This document shows positions 48,142-57,351 of a stretch of 64,000 nucleotides of DNA, piece after piece (position 1 is the stretch's first letter; every line of letters starts with the position of its first letter). Source of the DNA: an uncultured delta proteobacterium. GTDB lineage: Bacteria > Desulfobacterota > BSN033 > UBA1163. The translations under genes were made by a program, and so were the position numbers. The stretch is taken from contig CAVPSJ010000004.1 of NCBI GenBank assembly GCA_963708295.1, positions 288,001-352,000 on the forward strand, read 5' to 3'. The notes beneath the pieces are model-generated. The model saw only the letters and a program-made list of their open reading frames with translations. It was not told where the DNA came from and searched no databases.

Positions 48142-49392
48142 TCAGGCCACCTCGACTTCTTTCTCATAAAGAAGGATCGGGCTTTCGTTATGGAGGACGA
48201 CCTCTTCGCTGATGATACATTCACGGATGTTGGATTGGGAGGGGATCTCATACATCACATCCAGCATGGTGTTCTCCATGATCGCGCGAAGTCCCCGGGC
48301 GCCGGACTTTCTCTTAATGGCCTCCTTCGCAATCGACATCAACGCCCCCTCGGTGAATCGAAGCTTCACACTTTCAAGCTCGAAGAGTTTTTGGTACTGT
48401 TTCACCAGGGCATTCTTCGGCTTTTTTAGGATATCCACCAATGCATCGACGCTCAGCTCGTCCAGGGTGGCAATCACCGGAAGTCTTCCGATGAACTCAG
48501 GAATCAACCCAAACTTCAAGAGGTCCTCGGGTTGAACCTCCCTGAGCAGCTCTCCCATGTCCCGCTCATACTGGGACTTGATATCCGCCCCAAACCCGAG
48601 AGTCTTCCCTCCGACCCGTTGCTCAACGAGTTTTTCAAGCCCGACGAAAGCTCCGCCGCAGATGAAGAGGATGTTGGTGGTGTCGATCTGAATGAATTCC
48701 TGCTGGGGGTGTTTCCGGCCCCCTTTCGGCGGGATGCTCGCAACGGTTCCTTCGATGATTTTCAGGAGGGCCTGCTGCACACCCTCCCCTGACACATCTC
48801 GCGTAATCGAGGGGCTATCGGATTTTCTCGAGATCTTGTCGATTTCGTCAATGTAAACGATTCCCTTCTGAGTCCGCTCGATATCGTAATCAGCCGACTG
48901 AAGAAGACTCAGAATAATATTCTCCACATCCTCGCCCACATACCCTGCTTCCGTCAGGCAGGTGGCATCCGCAATCGTGAAGGGGACATCGAGGATACGG
49001 GCCAGCGTCTGGGCGAGGAGCGTTTTCCCGGACCCGGTGGGACCGATGAGGATGATATTTGATTTCTGGAGTTCTACCTCTCCGGAGGCCACTCGAGCAT
49101 CGATCCGCTTATAGTGATTGTGGACGGCCACCGACAGGATCTTCTTCGCATGCTCCTGCCCGATCACATACTCATCGAGCTTGGCCTTGATCTCCATGGG
49201 CTTCGGGACCGTCAGTCTTCCCGGGACGAACCGTTCCTCCGTCTCCTCTGCAATGATCTCGTTACAGAGTTCGATGCATTCGTCGCAGATGTAGACCGTG
49301 GGGCCGGCGATGAGCTTTCTTACCTCATCCTGACTCTTCCCGCAGAAGGAACAATGTAAGACGGTCCCGTAATTTCCTCCGTTCGCCTTCAT
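48142..49392 (-). CDS. clpX: ATP-dependent Clp protease ATP-binding subunit ClpX
   Basis: CSFCGK zinc finger, [18 protein letters not shown]. Confidence 0.98.
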
Positions 49393-49422
49393 CGTCTTCT
49401 CCTTTCTGTCTCCCTTCAGGAA

Positions 49423-50022
49423 CTACCCTTGAGACCGGACGGGACGCTGGAGAACCACCTCATCGACAATACCGTATTCCCTCGCCTGATGGCCACTCAT
49501 AAAAAAATCTCGATCAGTATCCGCCTGGATTCGTTCCAATGGTTGAGACGTATGTTTGACCATAATCCGATTCAGCTCTTCCCGAAGCCGGAGGATCTCC
49601 TTTGCCTGGATGTCCACATCCGACGCCTGTCCTTGAAACCCCCCCATGGGCTGATGGATGAGAATCCTCGAATGGGGAAGGGCGAATCGTTTCCCCTTTT
49701 CCCCTGCCGCAAGAAGCAAGGCCGCGATACTGGCCCCCTGTCCCATACATAACGTGGAAACCTTGGGTCGAATATACTGCATCGTATCATAAATAGCAAG
49801 CCCGGAGGTCACAACCCCTCCTGGGGAATTGATGTAGAGATGAACGTCCTTATCCGGGTCTTCCGATTCCAGGAAGAGCATCTGGGCAATCACCAGATTG
49901 GCTACATCATCGTCAATCGCCGTCCCCACAAATATGATTCGCTCTTTCAAAAGACGAGAATAAATATCATAGGCTCGTTCGCCTCTCCCGTCCTTTTCGA
50001 TCACAATCGGTATCAGTGTCAT
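49423..50022 (-). CDS. clpP: Clp protease proteolytic subunit
   Basis: [23 protein letters not shown]. Confidence 0.98.
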
Positions 50023-50033
50023 CGCTTTTTCCC

Positions 50034-51317
50034 TCAGACATAGTCGATTTCTGCTTTCTCAAGCAGAAAGCTCAAAGCTCTGTCCCGGAGGATTCCGGCC
50101 TTCACTTCAGGAAGAAGTCCATTCTTTTCGTAGTATTGTTTGACCACTTCGAATTTTTGGTGCGTCCTCTCCGACATCTCTTTCAGGCGATCCTCTGCCT
50201 CCTGATCGGTGACCGCAATCCCCTCCTGGCCCGCAATTTTGTCAAGGATAAGAACAGTCCTGACTTGCTTCTGGGCCATCGCCTTATAATCCTCCTGGAG
50301 CTTCTCCTCCGAGACGCCCAGATTCTTGAAAACCACCCCCTGAGCAGCCAGTTTCAACTTCGTGTCCGAGACCATGGCCTTGGCCTGCTCTTCCACCAAG
50401 CTTTCGGGAACCTCGAAGGGATTTGCCTCAAGCAGTCGATCGACCACCGAATCCTTTAATTGCCGTTCTAATGCGAGCTCTTTCTCCTTTTTGATGTCTT
50501 CCGTCAATTTCGCCTTTAATTCTCCCAAAGACGAATAATCCCCCAGATCTTTCGCAAATTCATCATCCAGCGGAGGGAAGATCTTTTCCTTTATCTCCTT
50601 GATCTTTACCTGGAAGGAGATGGTTTTCCCCGCCCATTTTTGATATCCATAATCCTGAGGGAACGTGACCTCAATCTCCTTCTCTTCCTCCGGTTTCAGT
50701 CCGATGATCTTCTCTTCGAAGGCAGGGATAAATTGTCCGCTTCCCACCTCTACGGTAAAATCAATCGCCTTCCCTCCCTCCAAGGGTTTGCCATTCAAAC
50801 TCGCCTCATAATTGAGGATGACAAAATCTCCTGCCTGGATGGTTCTCGCCTCTGAAACGGTTTTTAAATTGGAATGGAGGTTCTGGAGGGCTTTCAACCG
50901 CTCCTCCACCTCTTCGTCTTTCACCTCTTCTCTCTTCCCTTCGATCTTCAACCCCGTATACCCTTCTAATTTGATCTCGGGTTTGACCTCAATCACAGCG
51001 GAATATTGAAACGGCTTTCCTTGTTCAAATTCTCCAGGATCGACCACGGGCGGAGAGACGGGCTCGAGATGCGTCTCCGTGAGGGCTTTTGGATAGGATT
51101 CTTCTATCAATTTGCGGACGACCTCTACCTTGACATGATCTTTAAAATACCTCTCCAGAATGTTTCTTGGAACCTTTCCGGGCCTAAACCCTTTGATCTT
51201 GGCCGTCCTCCCCAACTCTTTATAGATGGATTCAACTTCCTTGCCGACCTCGTCTTCCGGAATTTCTACGGCTATCTTCTTCTTGATCGGACTGATCTCT
51301 TCAGCACTGGCTCTCAT
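50034..51317 (-). CDS. tig: Trigger factor
   Basis: [12 protein letters not shown] domain FIPAFEE; upstream of clpP. Confidence 0.96.
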
Positions 51318-51338
51318 GAAATATCCCCTCAAATGTGA

Positions 51339-51476
51339 AAATACGAAATCCGAAATTCTAAATTCGAAACAAATCCTAAATTCAAATGATCAAATTTCTA
51401 AAACTCTTCGTTCCACTTGTTCTATTTCGGTCATTCGAATTTGTTTCGTGCTTCGTATTTCGTGATTCGAATTTGC
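51339..51476. repeat. Palindromic heptamer-repeat array
   Basis: AAATACG AAATCCG AAATTCT AAATTCG...TTCGAATTTG TTTCGTG CTTCGTA TTTCGTG ATTCGAA. Confidence 0.7.
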
Positions 51477-51488
51477 TTGAAATTGACT

Positions 51489-51575
51489 TGGTGCCGAGGG
51501 CGGGACTCGAACCCGCACAGTCTCACGACCACGAGATCCTAAGTCTCGCGCGTATTCCAATTTCGCCACCCCGGC
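51489..51575 (-). tRNA. tRNA-Leu(TAG)
   Basis: GCCGGGG acceptor, CGAGA-CT-TAG-GA-TCTCG, long variable arm, CCA. Confidence 0.96.
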
Positions 51576-51845
51576 CCGTGACGTTGCTAGCGTCTTCAGG
51601 CGAGACGTCGCCTTATTTGTGCCCGCGCCCTTCCTGCAACCCGCGAATAATCAAGAACTTCTTGTGATAATAATAACTTAATTTAATACTATAATCCATT
51701 TGGTCCGTGCTGTCAATCAAACTACGTTCCCCTCCCCTCTCCCGCTGGAGGAGAGGGGAGGGGGGAGGGAAAAAACTGCTTACAAAAACTTCCATGATAG
51801 TTGATTTTGTTACAATATGTTTTATGATAGAGCATGGATAAGATC

Positions 51846-51905
51846 ATGCAAAGAATGGCCAATTTTTATTATCGGTACTACTTTTTCGTTAGAGGCCTCC
51901 CATAG
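51846..51905 (+). CDS. Attenuator leader peptide MQRMANFYYRYYFFVRGLP (in-frame ATGs at 51834, 51846, 51855)
   Basis: 4 Tyr and 3 Phe within 8 consecutive codons (51864-51887); stop codon lies inside a predicted antiterminator strand. Confidence 0.8.
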   Translation: MQRMANFYYRYYFFVRGLP

Positions 51906-51926
51906 GTTCTCTTCCCGACGGATGAG

Positions 51927-51968
51927 AAGCCATGGGTGATGAATGGCCCCATGGCTTTTTTATTTTTT
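51927..51968 (+). terminator. Attenuator terminator 1
   Basis: AAGCCATGGG/CCCATGGCTT stem followed by TTTTTTATTTTTT. Confidence 0.85.
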
Positions 51969-51969
51969 G

Positions 51970-52000
51970 AAGCCACGGAGCCAGCTCTGTGGCTTTTTTT
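51970..52000 (+). terminator. Attenuator terminator 2
   Basis: AAGCCACGGAG-CCAG-CTCTGTGGCTT followed by a T7 run. Confidence 0.85.
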
Positions 52001-52034
52001 GTTCTGAGGATAAGCAAACGATGGAGGAACAGGG

Positions 52035-54197
52035 ATGACAGAGTTCAGATATTCGAATGTCGATCGTGAAATGGAGGTCTACGGCTATGACTCCATGGTC
52101 AAAAGCCATTGCCGGATGTGTCATGGGGGTTGTGGGGTCCTTGTCTACCTCAAAGACGGCAAAGTGGCAAAGATCGCCGGTGATCCCGATTGTCCCATTA
52201 ACCATGGAACGCTCTGCACCAAAGGGCTTGCCTCGGCACAGCTGGCTTATCATCCGGACAGGCTGACCCACCCCGTCAAAAGGGTCGGGCCAAAAGCGAG
52301 CGGTCAATGGGAACGGATTTCATGGGATGAAGCCCTGGACGCCATCGCAAATCGAATCCTCGAATATAAAGAAAAACACGGGCCTGAATCCGTCGTATTC
52401 GGCTACGGGACAGGCCGCGAAAATGAGGCCGTGATCTACCGCATCGCCAACCTCCTCGGGTCCCCAAACGTGCTGACGGCAGGCCATTTCTGTTATGGCC
52501 CGCGGGTGTCGACGGGCATCATCACCTGCGGCACGAATCCTATTGTCGATTATGAGAATTTCCCCAAGTGCGTCATGATGTGGGGAAATAACGTCACGAT
52601 CAGCAATGCCGACGAATATAAAGGCGAGTCCTTCTCCGTCGCTCTCGACCATGGCGCCAAGCTCATCGTGGTTGACCCCAGGCTCACTCGTCCGGCTGCA
52701 CGGGCAAACGTCTGGCTCCAGTTGAGACCCGGCACAGACGCAGCCCTTGCCCTCGGAATGCTCAACGTGATCGTTAACGAAGAGCTTTATGACAAGGAAT
52801 TCGTCGAGCATTATACCCACGGCTGGAATCCTTTTGTCAAAAGGGTGAACGAGTATCCCCTTGAGAAGGTCGAAGAGATCACGTGGGTTCCGAGAGAAAA
52901 GATCAGGGAGGCGGCAAGGCTCTTCGCTACGACCAAACCCGCTGCCATTCAGTGGGGTGTGGCCATCGAGCAGCAAATGAACTGCGCAGACAATGACCGG
53001 CTATTGATGTTCCTCTTAGGGTTGACCGGCAACATCGATGCACCCGGCGGCCAGGTTCTCAACCGGACGCCAAATATCGTTAATGTAGGCCATTTCGGCG
53101 CCCATGGCATGCTTCCCAAGGAACAGTTCGCAAAACGATTGGGCGGGGATCGTTTCCGTCTTGCCTCGCGGTTCGCCATCCTTCAGCCGAAATGTGTCTG
53201 GGATGCCATCCTCGAAGAAACACCCTATCCCGTGAAAATGCTCTTTCTCATCAGTTCCAATCCTGTCATCACCCGTGCCAATGCAAAAGAGGTTTACCGT
53301 GCCCTTGAGAAAGTTGAATTCATGGCGGTGGCCGATTTCTTCCTGACCCCGACCGCGGAACTTGCCGACATTGTGCTCCCCGCTGCAACCTGGCTTGAGA
53401 TGGATTATATCGGCGACTTTTGGAAGCGTCACGGCTATATCCTGCCCCGGCGCAAAGTGATCCAGGTGGGGGAGTGCCGCTCAGACCACGAGATGCTCAA
53501 TGATCTTGCCCACCGGATCGGCCAGGGCCCCTACTGGTGGGACAACTTCGAGCAGGCCCTTGATTATATCCTTCATCCGATGGGTATCGCCTGGGATGAT
53601 TTCAAGAAGATGAATTATATCAGGGGAGAGGTGAAGTATTACAAGTACAAACAGGGAGGATTTTCCACTCCGACCAGAAAGTTTGAGCTCTTCTCCACAG
53701 CCCTCGAAAAGATGGGGTATGATCCTCTTCCCCAGCACAGGGAACCGCCTGAAAGCCCGGTGAGCGCACCGAAGCTTCATCAGGAGTATCCTTATATCCT
53801 CATTACAGGTGCGCGACCGCCCGGTTTTTTCCACACAGAAAACAGACAGGTCCCCCGACTCAGAGAGCTTCACAAGGACCCCATCGTTGAGATCCATCCG
53901 GATGTCGCTCTAAAGGAAGGGATTAAAGAGGGCGATTGGGTCATCATCGAATCCCCGAGAGGGAAAGTGAGACAGCGGGCGAAACTCGCCCTTGGACGGG
54001 ATCCCCGGATCGTAGCGGCCCAGCATGCGTGGTGGTTTCCGGAAAACAGGAATCCCGGTCATGGTTGGGACGAATCCAACATCAACATCCTGACTGACAA
54101 TGCTCTGGAGGGCTGTGACCCGGCAATGGGGGCATCGAATATCAGGACGCTCCTTTGCAGGATACGTCCCGAAAAGAAGGAGGTCAGCCATGAATAA
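52035..54197 (+). CDS. Molybdopterin (bis-MGD) oxidoreductase, acetylene-hydratase-like clade
   Basis: CRMCHGGC...LCTKG [4Fe-4S], WERISWDEALD, HFCYGP (Cys ligand position), RPGTDAALALG, TPTAELADIVLP; no Tat signal. Confidence 0.9.
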   Translation: MTEFRYSNVDREMEVYGYDSMVKSHCRMCHGGCGVLVYLKDGKVAKIAGDPDCPINHGTLCTKGLASAQLAYHPDRLTHPVKRVGPKASGQWERISWDEALDAIANRILEYKEKHGPESVVFGYGTGRENEAVIYRIANLLGSPNVLTAGHFCYGPRVSTGIITCGTNPIVDYENFPKCVMMWGNNVTISNADEYKGESFSVALDHGAKLIVVDPRLTRPAARANVWLQLRPGTDAALALGMLNVIVNEELYDKEFVEHYTHGWNPFVKRVNEYPLEKVEEITWVPREKIREAARLFATTKPAAIQWGVAIEQQMNCADNDRLLMFLLGLTGNIDAPGGQVLNRTPNIVNVGHFGAHGMLPKEQFAKRLGGDRFRLASRFAILQPKCVWDAILEETPYPVKMLFLISSNPVITRANAKEVYRALEKVEFMAVADFFLTPTAELADIVLPAATWLEMDYIGDFWKRHGYILPRRKVIQVGECRSDHEMLNDLAHRIGQGPYWWDNFEQALDYILHPMGIAWDDFKKMNYIRGEVKYYKYKQGGFSTPTRKFELFSTALEKMGYDPLPQHREPPESPVSAPKLHQEYPYILITGARPPGFFHTENRQVPRLRELHKDPIVEIHPDVALKEGIKEGDWVIIESPRGKVRQRAKLALGRDPRIVAAQHAWWFPENRNPGHGWDESNINILTDNALEGCDPAMGASNIRTLLCRIRPEKKEVSHE

Positions 54198-56184
54198 ATA
54201 TGCGCTGATTATCGAAGAGTATGCCTGCTGGGGGTGCAGGACCTGTGAAGTCGCCTGCCAACAGGAATACAATCCGGTCGAGTCGAAAGACGGGGTCAAG
54301 TATCTCTCGGTTTGGCCGGATGGTCCCAAGGTCATGAACGGGAAGCTTGATTTCATATGGCGTGTGAACGTCTGCAAACATTGTGCGGAGCCCCTCTGCG
54401 CCAAGGCCTGTCCCGAAGATGCCATTACGAAAGACCCAAAGACAGGCATTGTCCTCAGCGAAAGAGAGAAGTGCAGCGGCTGTCAGGCAGTCATGGGTGA
54501 GTCCCGAGCTGAAAAGCAGGAAACCTCTCCGTGTAAGATGGAATGTCCGGCGCACAACAATGTTCAGGGATACGTGAATCTTGCTGCCAAGGGGAAGTTT
54601 CAGGAAGCTCTGCAACTGATCAAGGAGACCAGCCCCTTCCCGTCGATCTGCGGGAGGATCTGTCATCACCCCTGTGAAACGGACTGTCACCGGTCTCAAA
54701 TCGACGAATCCGTAGCCGCCCACTCCATTGAGCGCTTCCTGGGCGATTTGGATCTCAATTCAAGCACCCGCTATCAGCCCCGCATAAAAGCCAGGAAAAA
54801 AGAGAAAGTCGCCGTTGTCGGATCCGGCCCTGCCGGATTAACCTGTGCCTACTATCTTGCACGAGAAGGCTACCCGGTAACGATCTTCGAAAAAGCTGAC
54901 CTGCTGGGAGGGATGCTTGCAATGGCCATCCCCTCCTACCGTCTTCCCTCGGAAGTTATCGAGGCTGAAATCCGGCTCATTCGCGATCTGGGTGTGACCA
55001 TGAAAACCGGCGTGGAGGTGGGCAAAGATAAAACCGTTGCTCAATTGCGCCAAGAGGGCTTCAAGGCCTTCTTCATCGCCATCGGAACACAGGAGTGTTC
55101 GCGACTGGGAATTGAAGGCGAGGACCTGAAGGGCGTCTATCAGGGATTGGACTATCTCCGAAGTATCAAGCGTGGAGAATCGTTGGCCCTGGGGAAGGAC
55201 GTCGTCGTCATTGGCGGAGGGAATGCCGCAATGGATGCCGTCAGGTCAGCCCGCAGATCGGGAGCCGAAAACGCCACGATTCTCTATCGCCGGGGTCTGG
55301 AGGAAATGCCTGCAAGACCTGAAGAGATTGAGGAATGCCGGGAAGAAGGGATTTCCATCCAAACCCTGACTCAACCTGCGCGATTCATCGGCAAGAATGG
55401 AGAAGTAAAAGCGATCGAATGCGTAAAAGTGCGCCTGGCGGACCCGGACGGGAGTGGCCGGCGGAGACCCGAGCCCATCCCTGCCTCGGAATTTACGATT
55501 CAAGTCAGCGCCGTCATCACGGCCCTGGGGCAAGAAGCGGACTGGGCCTGCCTGACCCCGGAGTGCTCCTGCACGTTGACCCCATGGGGAACAATGAAGG
55601 TGGACCCTTTGACGCTTCAGAGCGAGGATCCTGACATCTTTGCGGGCGGAGATGCGGTCAGAGGCCCCCAGACCGTTATCGAAGCGATTGCAGACGGGAG
55701 ACGGGCAGCGGTATCGATCGATCGATACATCGAAAGCCGGGGCCTTCGATCGGATGGAGATATTGAATTGAAAGCAATCACGACCCCGCAGAAAGGGAAA
55801 TACGATCCGTCTCCCCGGTCTCAGATGCCCCGTCTGGAGGCTCAAGAGCGAACCAACAATTTCGCGGAGGTTCAAAAAGGCTTCACCAAGGAGACGGCCA
55901 TGCAGGAGGCACAGCGGTGTATCTCCTGCGGCAGTTGCTGCATACAGGCCTGTCCCTATGGCGCCATTGCCTTTGACCCAAAGACCGGAAAGATCCAGAA
56001 GTGCAACCTTTGTCATCACCGGGTGACGAACGGACTCTATCCTGCCTGTGCGGACAACGTCTGCCTCGCCCATTGCATCTACTTCGGCGATCCCGCCGAG
56101 ATTGAACAAAGGATTCTGGAGAAAAGGAAGATCAGAGGAGGCTGGGGAGAAATCCTTCCTAAGGCTTTCATCGGCTCGAGGTGA
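54190..56184 (+). CDS. DmsB-like 4Fe-4S protein with an inserted GltD-like FAD/NAD(P)H oxidoreductase
   Basis: CWGCRTCEVAC, CKHCAEPLCAKACP, CGRICHHPCE, GSGPAG, GGGNAAMD, YRR, CIQACPY, KCNLC. Confidence 0.9.
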   Translation: MNKYALIIEEYACWGCRTCEVACQQEYNPVESKDGVKYLSVWPDGPKVMNGKLDFIWRVNVCKHCAEPLCAKACPEDAITKDPKTGIVLSEREKCSGCQAVMGESRAEKQETSPCKMECPAHNNVQGYVNLAAKGKFQEALQLIKETSPFPSICGRICHHPCETDCHRSQIDESVAAHSIERFLGDLDLNSSTRYQPRIKARKKEKVAVVGSGPAGLTCAYYLAREGYPVTIFEKADLLGGMLAMAIPSYRLPSEVIEAEIRLIRDLGVTMKTGVEVGKDKTVAQLRQEGFKAFFIAIGTQECSRLGIEGEDLKGVYQGLDYLRSIKRGESLALGKDVVVIGGGNAAMDAVRSARRSGAENATILYRRGLEEMPARPEEIEECREEGISIQTLTQPARFIGKNGEVKAIECVKVRLADPDGSGRRRPEPIPASEFTIQVSAVITALGQEADWACLTPECSCTLTPWGTMKVDPLTLQSEDPDIFAGGDAVRGPQTVIEAIADGRRAAVSIDRYIESRGLRSDGDIELKAITTPQKGKYDPSPRSQMPRLEAQERTNNFAEVQKGFTKETAMQEAQRCISCGSCCIQACPYGAIAFDPKTGKIQKCNLCHHRVTNGLYPACADNVCLAHCIYFGDPAEIEQRILEKRKIRGGWGEILPKAFIGSR

Positions 56185-57160: not shown

Positions 57161-57351
57161 AATCCCGTCCGTTCCCCGCCTTTAAACCCGTCTTCCACCC
57201 TGTTCATTTCTCCAACAAATCGGAACCGGGTGCTGAAACCGGTTCAGCATGACGGTTTAGTTCTGGCCTTTTTGTCATCCCGAACTGGGTTCGGGATCTC
57301 TCTTTGGGTCTAAGAATTTAGGCGCTAAAGCCCTGCCCCGGGCGGGGCTGT

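Follow-up and report, generated by a model that had tools for sequence, protein, structure and literature searches.

The enterobacterial leaders of pheL-pheA and pheM-pheST consist of an open reading frame (ORF) with aromatic codons that ends in Pro-stop, followed by a terminator with a capturable 5' arm, and stalling of the ribosome upon starvation leads to read-through. Here we report a leader of this type in a 64,000-nucleotide (nt) stretch of DNA from an uncultured delta proteobacterium (contig CAVPSJ010000004.1, positions 288,001 to 352,000; hereafter the window), where it precedes the genes for a molybdenum/tungsten (Mo/W) enzyme of the bis-pyranopterin guanosine dinucleotide (bisPGD) type and for a flavoprotein. 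The attenuator is real as sequence, in its homology and in its predicted switching, and the leader very probably switches on the Mo/W enzyme when tyrosine runs short. Specifically, it has in common with the enterobacterial Phe leaders the aromatic-codon ORF ending in Pro-stop and a terminator 5' arm that an upstream strand can capture, but it would sense both Tyr and Phe, perhaps Tyr more strongly, its two terminators are relay-coupled in series, and its cargo is a molybdoenzyme operon and not pheA or pheST. Devices of this kind are known, and this one is a lineage-specific variant with two terminators. What is new is that it is attached to a molybdoenzyme operon, for which it provides a useful functional label; literature searches, which did not cover supplements, returned no description of the two-terminator scaffold nor of a Mo enzyme under amino-acid attenuation.

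For the proteins, the closest described systems are of three kinds. Acetylene hydratase is a non-redox, single-subunit enzyme; that of Pelobacter acetylenicus (2e7z) shares the cluster motif and the ligand Cys with the window enzyme, which differs in having His30 in place of an Asp and a translationally coupled redox partner gene. The catechol dehydroxylases Dadh and Hcdh, which bind bis-molybdopterin guanine dinucleotide, are described in one study as a class whose closest relative is acetylene hydratase; the same study states that uncharacterised homologues are abundant in anaerobic degraders of aromatic compounds, and a file legend names a predicted membrane-anchor partner gene with Dadh (PMC7028382). 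In the window the electron module is a GltD-like flavoprotein, and any likeness to Dadh would run through acetylene hydratase, the closest solved relative of the window enzyme. This partner has the Fer4_20 plus Pyr_redox_2 architecture of the NAD(P)H flavoprotein-iron-sulphur (FeS) modules of the GltD/NfnB/AegA type, from which it differs by a 4Fe-4S dicluster at both ends and by its coupling to a Mo/W subunit.

A leader ORF followed by two terminators, probably coupled

A preliminary description of this locus had noted a leader ORF with the codons F-Y-Y-R-Y-Y-F-F, a promoter-like TTGATT-N16-TATGAT upstream of it and a U-tailed terminator (T1), and all of them are present at the coordinates given there (Table 1); a consensus scan finds the same promoter-like site. 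The capture proposed there also stands, as 51899-51911 can pair at 11 of 13 positions with the T1 5' arm, GAGAAGCCATGGG (51924-51936), which thereby doubles as antiterminator 3' strand. A second terminator (T2) follows, and it had gone unmentioned, as had the mere 34 nt between the T2 U-run and the ATG of the enzyme gene (52035), a gap that includes the Shine-Dalgarno sequence (SD) GGAGGA at 52023-52028. Since the gap is this short, there is probably no room in it for a separate sigma-70-type promoter. A small hairpin lies between the leader ORF and T1 and is enclosed by the antiterminator pairing.

Transcription would start near 51835. With charged tRNA-Tyr and tRNA-Phe plentiful, the ribosome would reach the Pro-stop (51900-51905) and mask the antiterminator 5' strand, because 51899-51911 overlaps the Pro and stop codons; T1 and then T2 would form, and transcription would stop before 52035. 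A ribosome stalled in F-Y-Y-R-Y-Y-F-F would leave 51899-51911 free to capture the T1 5' arm; the T1 3' arm, being released in this way, would pair with the T2 5' arm (the relay) and, with neither terminator formed, the operon would be transcribed. We infer the promoter, the stalling and the read-through, and the folds are computed. That this is a ribosome-mediated transcription attenuator gating an operon of the Mo/W-bisPGD enzyme, the FeS/GltD-like flavoprotein and probably a third gene, ORF3, is a reading in which we have good confidence, and we infer that the two- or three-gene operon belongs to a Tyr (and Phe) starvation regulon. The trp/pheA-type attenuation put forward in the preliminary description thus gains strong support from homology, from conserved Tyr/Phe codons with synonymous changes and from mutually exclusive helices.

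Alternative folds were assessed in a structural alignment of 66 copies of this leader-terminator scaffold, which are kin and not independent sequences; the shuffle counts given here are not probabilities. For the fold with T1 and T2, 98.6% of the cells are paired, nine pairs have changed on both sides and none of 500 shuffles equals this; covariation is present in T2. The antiterminator set has two parts: the last codons of the leader, (G)GTCACCCAT, which pair with ATGGGTGAC(C) in the 5' arm and loop of T1, and the relay between the T1 3' arm and the T2 5' arm. Here 95.2% of the cells are paired, compared with 32-47% when the partners are slid. As far as sequence comparison goes, the alignment supports two mutually exclusive folds, T1 plus T2 on the one hand and antiterminator plus relay on the other. 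The pairing between the T1 3' arm and the T2 5' arm explains why the latter is always similar to the T1 5' arm, with free covariation in the remainder of T2.

Minimum-energy folds follow the same scheme. With the leader end free, the anti-T1 helix is predicted in 62 of the 66 copies when the RNA ends before the T1 3' arm, and when it ends after the T2 5' arm anti-T1 is predicted in 62, the relay in 48 and T1 in a single copy; with a ribosome mask at the stop codon, T1 is predicted in 65 and T2 in 64. In the window copy, nascent RNA that does not yet include the T1 3' arm has the pairing of 51899-51911 with 51924-51936 as its minimum-energy fold; together with the enclosed hairpin this pairing is predicted at about -20 to -26 kcal/mol. 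According to the computation the relay forms under a modelled stalled ribosome and both terminators under a ribosome on the stop codon.

A cmscan of 51300-52300 against Rfam, at E up to 10, gave no riboswitch (including that for molybdenum cofactor), T-box or leader family, the only match passing a gathering score being a tRNA, and the covariance model Phe_leader (RF01859) had no match in the same region and at the same limit.

A lineage-wide scaffold and its molybdoenzyme-linked version

The window's own genome (G000) was studied together with a set of 55 genomes of the same family (G labels). A blastn search with 51795-52005 gave matches to the T1-T2 part at one or more places in 54 of them (75-90% identity; in most genomes 75-83%), and each of the 21 family loci inspected has an F/Y-rich ORF whose end lies directly ahead of T1. 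A covariance model (R1), built from the 66 copies with the window among the seed sequences, finds the scaffold in 53 of the 55 genomes with one to six copies each. Moreover, a T1 pattern scan, in which parts of T1 were fixed, gave 76 loci in species-representative genomes, and according to a script 61 of these have an F/Y-rich leader; the record titles name Syntrophaceae, Syntrophales, Syntrophorhabdales, Thermodesulfobacteriota or Deltaproteobacteria metagenome-assembled genomes (MAGs). The downstream gene encodes an aminotransferase at 50 loci, a metallo-beta-lactamase (MBL)-fold protein of 307 amino acids (aa) at eight, DAHP synthase at two and the Mo enzyme at two, while two loci are cut off and 12 are unrelated matches in other taxa that have no leader.

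The codon mix of the leader tracks its cargo (47 secondary matches sampled). Leaders with F, Y and W codons precede an archaeal-type aroA'/aroB' shikimate-pheA supraoperon, partial scaffold matches precede trp genes, and a pure-Tyr leader with three to four consecutive Tyr codons (e.g. MDLSSKRLSDYYYYLQAIHLCA*, the asterisk being the stop) precedes a DUF362 gene on the same two-terminator scaffold. In G000 itself, a second copy (C8:88728-88869) with the leader MFNFCFFYFYFWKGHP* stands before a monocistronic class-I aminotransferase gene, and T1-T2 of the window is 75-83% identical to aminotransferase-linked copies (blastn). By sequence, the attenuator scaffold is lineage-wide and usually precedes a class-I aminotransferase, and the window leader is one of its paralogues. 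The (G)HP-stop/ATGGGTGAC antiterminator and the relay are common to the window copy and the aminotransferase- or shikimate-linked copies; in the window GLP replaces GHP, the antiterminator register has moved inward, the leader has shifted to a Tyr run, and the cargo is a molybdoenzyme instead of an aminotransferase or a shikimate operon.

To see how far the leader goes with the enzyme, we used the best 80 of 578 metagenome stretches encoding enzyme relatives (78-94% identical); 79 of these were inspected, and upstream DNA was sufficient in 77. Five of the 77 have the leader before the enzyme gene, as do G000, G002 and G044 among the genome representatives; the other seven of nine genome orthologues (at least 85% identity, relatives set) have unrelated upstream DNA. 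The aromatic-codon ORF with terminators is therefore found upstream of orthologues at seven further loci and, before other genes, in 61 of the 76 pattern-scan loci, so that the arrangement exceeds chance. The ORF is missing from 72 of the 77 metagenome and seven of the nine genome orthologues. As most orthologues are without it, the link between leader and enzyme looks like a lineage-specific recruitment.

The eight Mo-linked leaders (window, G044, G002, L137, L138, L139, L154 and L155) approximate F-Y-Y-Y-Y-(Y)-F-F and have a fixed R-G-(L/H)-P-stop end, with differing TAT/TAC choices and varying flanking residues. In the seven others, four to five Tyr codons are consecutive and vary synonymously; the CGG (Arg) codon of the window (51873-51875) is missing in frame, as exactly one codon, from a relative's DNA contig. 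The ORF, the two terminators and the spacing are conserved at all eight loci, with nucleotide identity down to approximately 77-80% for the copy that has diverged most. A quick tree of 86 enzymes places the leader-bearing rows, eight in number, in one clade of six and one pair nearby (none of 500 shuffles is as clustered). The tree needs two changes, and a single origin of the leader on it was rejected. In G058, a window-like leader sits before an aminotransferase gene. Going by these sequences, the Mo link seems to have arisen when one or two small enzyme subclades recruited a duplicated leader, which then shifted towards Tyr codons. We also considered whether the Mo-linked leader is complementary with DUF362 or shikimate genes, and the pattern is not clean: G000 and G044 have no DUF362 orthologue and G002 has both.

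Other scaffold copies were recorded as well. A possible third, weaker copy in G000 (46 bits; C10:16472-16625, minus strand, corresponding to L219:1501-1654) lies at the very end of a contig with its leader cut off and T1 without a U-tail, and precedes a family-III CoA-transferase gene that is split in two frames (135 and 307 aa). Phe-rich leaders ending in HPCP, HPYP or HPCL precede the conserved 307-aa MBL-fold protein (Lactamase_B/ODP) at L084, L092, L074, L103, L088, L119, L083 and L056 and at L224, L226 and L228; this protein adds a further unexplained member to that regulon of aromatic attenuators. The shikimate supraoperon (L220/L221 and L223, from G017 and G012) has the archaeal-type entry, a DeoC-family aldolase plus 3-dehydroquinate synthase II, and holds a 525-576-aa protein with a weak GNAT match.

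The operon genes and their surroundings

Judged from its sequence, the enzyme is a member of the dimethyl sulfoxide (DMSO)-reductase (Mo/W-bisPGD) superfamily. None of the curated NCBIfam equivalogs is reached, since of 27 families matched all 25 listed lie under their cut-offs, the best being TIGR01591 (formate dehydrogenase alpha; 337.9 bits, cut-off 666.25). Its best solved relative is acetylene hydratase 2e7z, aligned over the whole length with E 5e-118, in agreement with the acetylene-hydratase clade named in the preliminary description. In this alignment the Fe4S4 motif C26-x2-C29-x3-C33 is kept and Cys153 is placed with the metal-ligand Cys of 2e7z. Directly behind the second cluster Cys, the enzyme has His30 (CRMCHGGC) and 2e7z an Asp (CQSCDINC); we take this Asp to be catalytic in acetylene hydratase, where it would activate water.

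The NAD(P)H-linked partner expected from the earlier description is indeed a GltD-like flavoprotein of the NAD(P)H type, in which a GltD-like FAD/NAD(P)H module lies between an N-terminal and a C-terminal 4Fe-4S dicluster (Fer4_20 and Pyr_redox_2; NF009410 at 505.8 bits, cut-off 516). An FeS/flavoprotein partner accompanies 48 of the 80 metagenome orthologues, and many orthologous loci carry just its first approximately 104 residues as a small FeS subunit. ORF3 matches no family of Pfam or NCBIfam, and the ESM Atlas yielded no usable match. Besides the partner, the only recurrent neighbours at the 80 loci are an HAD hydrolase (11), IclR (9), an AMP-forming ligase (8) and a second HAD hydrolase cluster (8), which are too few to name a substrate. 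A metatranscriptome run (X4) contributed contigs that match sections of the enzyme and partner genes at 90-99% identity; none spans 51728-52049, and such contigs, from a library that may contain DNA, show neither ends nor levels and do not bear on termination.

Table 1. Elements of the leader locus and the operon behind it (positions in the window)
Feature	Position	Strand	Remarks
tRNA-Leu gene	51489..51575	-	Divergent; sets the upstream limit of the control region; no plus-strand gene further upstream
Promoter-like TTGATT-N16-TATGAT	51801..51828	+	Consensus scan, 9/12 matches; putative promoter
Leader ORF MQRMANFYYRYYFFVRGLP*, 19 codons	51846..51905	+	ATG 51846, TAG 51903-51905
Control codons F-Y-Y-R-Y-Y-F-F	51864..51887	+	Tyr or Phe in 7/8 consecutive codons
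Antiterminator 5' strand CCCATAGGTTCTC	51899..51911	+	Overlaps Pro codon and stop codon
Terminator T1, U-rich tail to 51968	51924..51968	+	5' arm 51924-51936; 3' arm 51947-51960
Terminator T2	51969..52000	+	12-base-pair stem 51969-51996 and U-run; 5' arm can pair with T1 3' arm (relay)
Mo/W-bisPGD enzyme, 720 aa	52035..54197	+	Pfam Molybdop_Fe4S4, Molybdopterin and Molydop_binding, all above cut-offs
Partner flavoprotein, 664 aa	54190..56184	+	ATG 54190 behind GAAGGAGG; overlaps enzyme stop by 8 nt; translationally coupled
ORF3, 236 aa	56387..57097	+	Behind partner in leader-type L137-L139 (82-85%) and L170 (51%)
Terminator-like hairpin	57329..57349	+	Possible operon end

Upstream of the promoter-like site, a G+C-rich palindrome, CCCCTCCCCTCTCCC...GGGAGAGGGGAGGGG, occupies 51729-51771. 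A relative's DNA contig has 71 other letters in its place, a similar element lies upstream of the G008 orthologue, and the palindrome is possibly an insertion resembling repetitive extragenic palindromic (REP) sequences. An ordinary tig-clpP-clpX cluster is found on the minus strand at 48142-51332, downstream of the tRNA-Leu gene.

A possible role in tyrosine supply and competing explanations

What the operon does is less firmly indicated than how it would be switched. NAD(P)H-driven ring dehydroxylation is a reasonable guess at the chemistry, because the acetylene-hydratase-like class contains reductive catechol dehydroxylases and an NAD(P)H-fed partner would fit. The preliminary description had gone further and supposed an O2-independent step supplying Tyr/Phe. 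We propose only tentatively that the operon has a direct role in Tyr supply, through salvage of aryl precursors or a TyrA-independent step. The more specific version, in which the Mo/W enzyme and the NAD(P)H-linked flavoprotein would either reductively dehydroxylate a 3,4-dihydroxyphenyl compound to a 4-hydroxyphenyl precursor or oxidise prephenate at the metal centre, as O2-independent Tyr suppliers within a TyrA-independent metabolism of Syntrophales-type anaerobes whose second half would be the DUF362 operon with its Tyr-only leader, seems to us unlikely. By contrast, we consider it a serious, if somewhat doubtful, possibility that the attenuator is real and the operon is unrelated to the making of Tyr, encoding an aromatic reductase or dehydroxylase for catabolism or as an electron sink that is merely wired to a starvation cue.

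Several observations favour a role in supply. The Mo-linked leader is Tyr-centred. PF02153 (TyrA) was above its cut-off in two of the 55 family genomes, whereas the same search was positive in all 14 control genomes; a lone sub-threshold PF02153 match in G000 was rejected as TyrA, being a 2-hydroxy-3-oxopropionate reductase at 441 bits above the cut-off for that family. As background, phenylalanine hydroxylase, the only other known route to Tyr, requires O2 (PMC7311316). In G017, from another genus, a 64% paralogue fused to a 4Fe-4S subunit (886 aa; L220:2430-5090, minus strand) lies 72 nt behind trpA, with no hairpin visible in that gap, and is the final gene of an aro-pheA-trp supraoperon headed by an attenuator. 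A 91% orthologue in G012 is divergent from a Tyr-leader DUF362 operon at approximately 220 nt, and 3-11 kb from the Tyr-leader DUF362 operon of G009 and G012 there is a 58% paralogue that has a GltD-like partner. Of four indolepyruvate-oxidoreductase-like alpha genes in G000, one is above a curated cut-off; with these genes and the F/Y-controlled aminotransferase it is conceivable that aryl acids are converted to aromatic amino acids. The positions of the G017 and G012 relatives speak at the same time against an operon for catabolism or electron disposal, as does the reshaping of the window leader towards Tyr and the fact that every other scaffold cargo that can be named is biosynthetic or transaminating.

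The distribution of the enzyme points the other way. That most orthologues lack the leader, that leaderless ones have IclR, AMP-ligase and HAD hydrolase neighbours, and that G000 holds 31 matches to the enzyme superfamily all count against Tyr supply and fit an enzyme of catabolism, the acetylene-hydratase-like class including respiratory catechol dehydroxylases (PMC7028382). The reduction of the partner to a small FeS protein at many loci likewise counts against supply. Moreover, the pure-Tyr leader marks the DUF362 operon and not the Mo enzyme, and the former fits a TyrA replacement better. A DUF362 orthologue is present in 20 of 24 family genomes that have prephenate dehydratase (PDT) and no TyrA and in neither of the two with TyrA, which makes DUF362 a candidate replacement for prephenate dehydrogenase, although it is also present in 12 genomes without PDT and the genomes are kin, not independent. 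DUF362 (PF04015) belongs to the same Pfam clan as lactate racemase LarA (PMC11770544). The leader before DUF362 is pure Tyr at L222:15830-19151 (G012), L229, L230, L231, L246 and L247 and mixed at L238:201-347 and L257:1637-1763, and in G012 the DUF362 gene is followed by genes for biotin carboxylase and biotin carboxyl carrier protein (BCCP).

The scarcity of TyrA agrees with the earlier idea of an alternative step. As to the de novo pathway, a search of G000, which is 91% complete, did not find PDT, chorismate synthase, TrpA or TrpE, and this too may be listed against supply; it is not counted as loss, because the genome is incomplete to that extent, the cluster is contiguous in relatives and an attenuator copy lies at a contig end, where repeats may have broken the assembly. 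In the 55 family genomes chorismate synthase was found in 30 and PDT in 26, and they were missed in several MAGs that are 97-98% complete. The attenuator-flanked cluster is on contigs of 2-3.5 kb in some assemblies, and the gaps may be binning losses rather than auxotrophy.

Some points weigh against the attenuator reading itself. The aligned scaffold copies are related by descent, part of their invariance is ascertainment because the T1 pattern scan fixed parts of T1, and the R1 score of the window copy (105.8 bits) is that of a seed sequence. In the window the leader SD is weaker than in G044 and G002, and the canonical anti-T1 helix, with a His-to-Leu change (CAC to CTC), is weakened to 6 of 10 pairs (the relay to 6 of 11); a different, inward register is relied on. 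At the length at which T1 is complete, T1 is the thermodynamic minimum, and read-through therefore needs kinetic trapping, with the antiterminator forming first. The promoter-like site alone is weak evidence, because the 1-kb region has three such sites by the consensus scan and shuffles give 1.1 +/- 1.0; ATGTTTTAT occurs inside it, and in the other copies of the family ATGTTTTAT comes after TTGACA.

Two other explanations of the leader were considered. An independent small gene for a peptide or small RNA, with the enzyme operon served by a promoter of its own that went unrecognised, would account for tandem strong terminators, which are typical at the ends of short, highly expressed units, and sigma-54 and other promoter types lay outside the coverage of the scan; we nevertheless regard it as very improbable, given the short T2-to-ATG gap with its SD, the occurrence of the leader-terminator unit at the same short distance before unrelated genes in dozens of genomes, alternative helices that overlap the terminators, and an Rfam search at E up to 10 with no family apart from tRNA. 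That the leader is a decaying relic of duplication or rearrangement with its regulation lost, as the Arg codon within the Tyr run, the weakened helix and the weak SD of the window copy and the degenerate look of the C10 copy might suggest, is hardly credible when eight loci conserve the whole arrangement, the leader changes are synonymous or in frame, and an alternative antiterminator register is present, predicted at -20 to -26 kcal/mol.

An attenuator leader is a genomic label of the amino acid that is served, and here the label of tyrosine (and phenylalanine) is found on a widespread, highly conserved enzyme. The device is a clear natural example of one ribosome decision that is relayed to two terminators in series, and its attachment to the Mo/W operon provides a lead to how strict anaerobes without TyrA obtain tyrosine.

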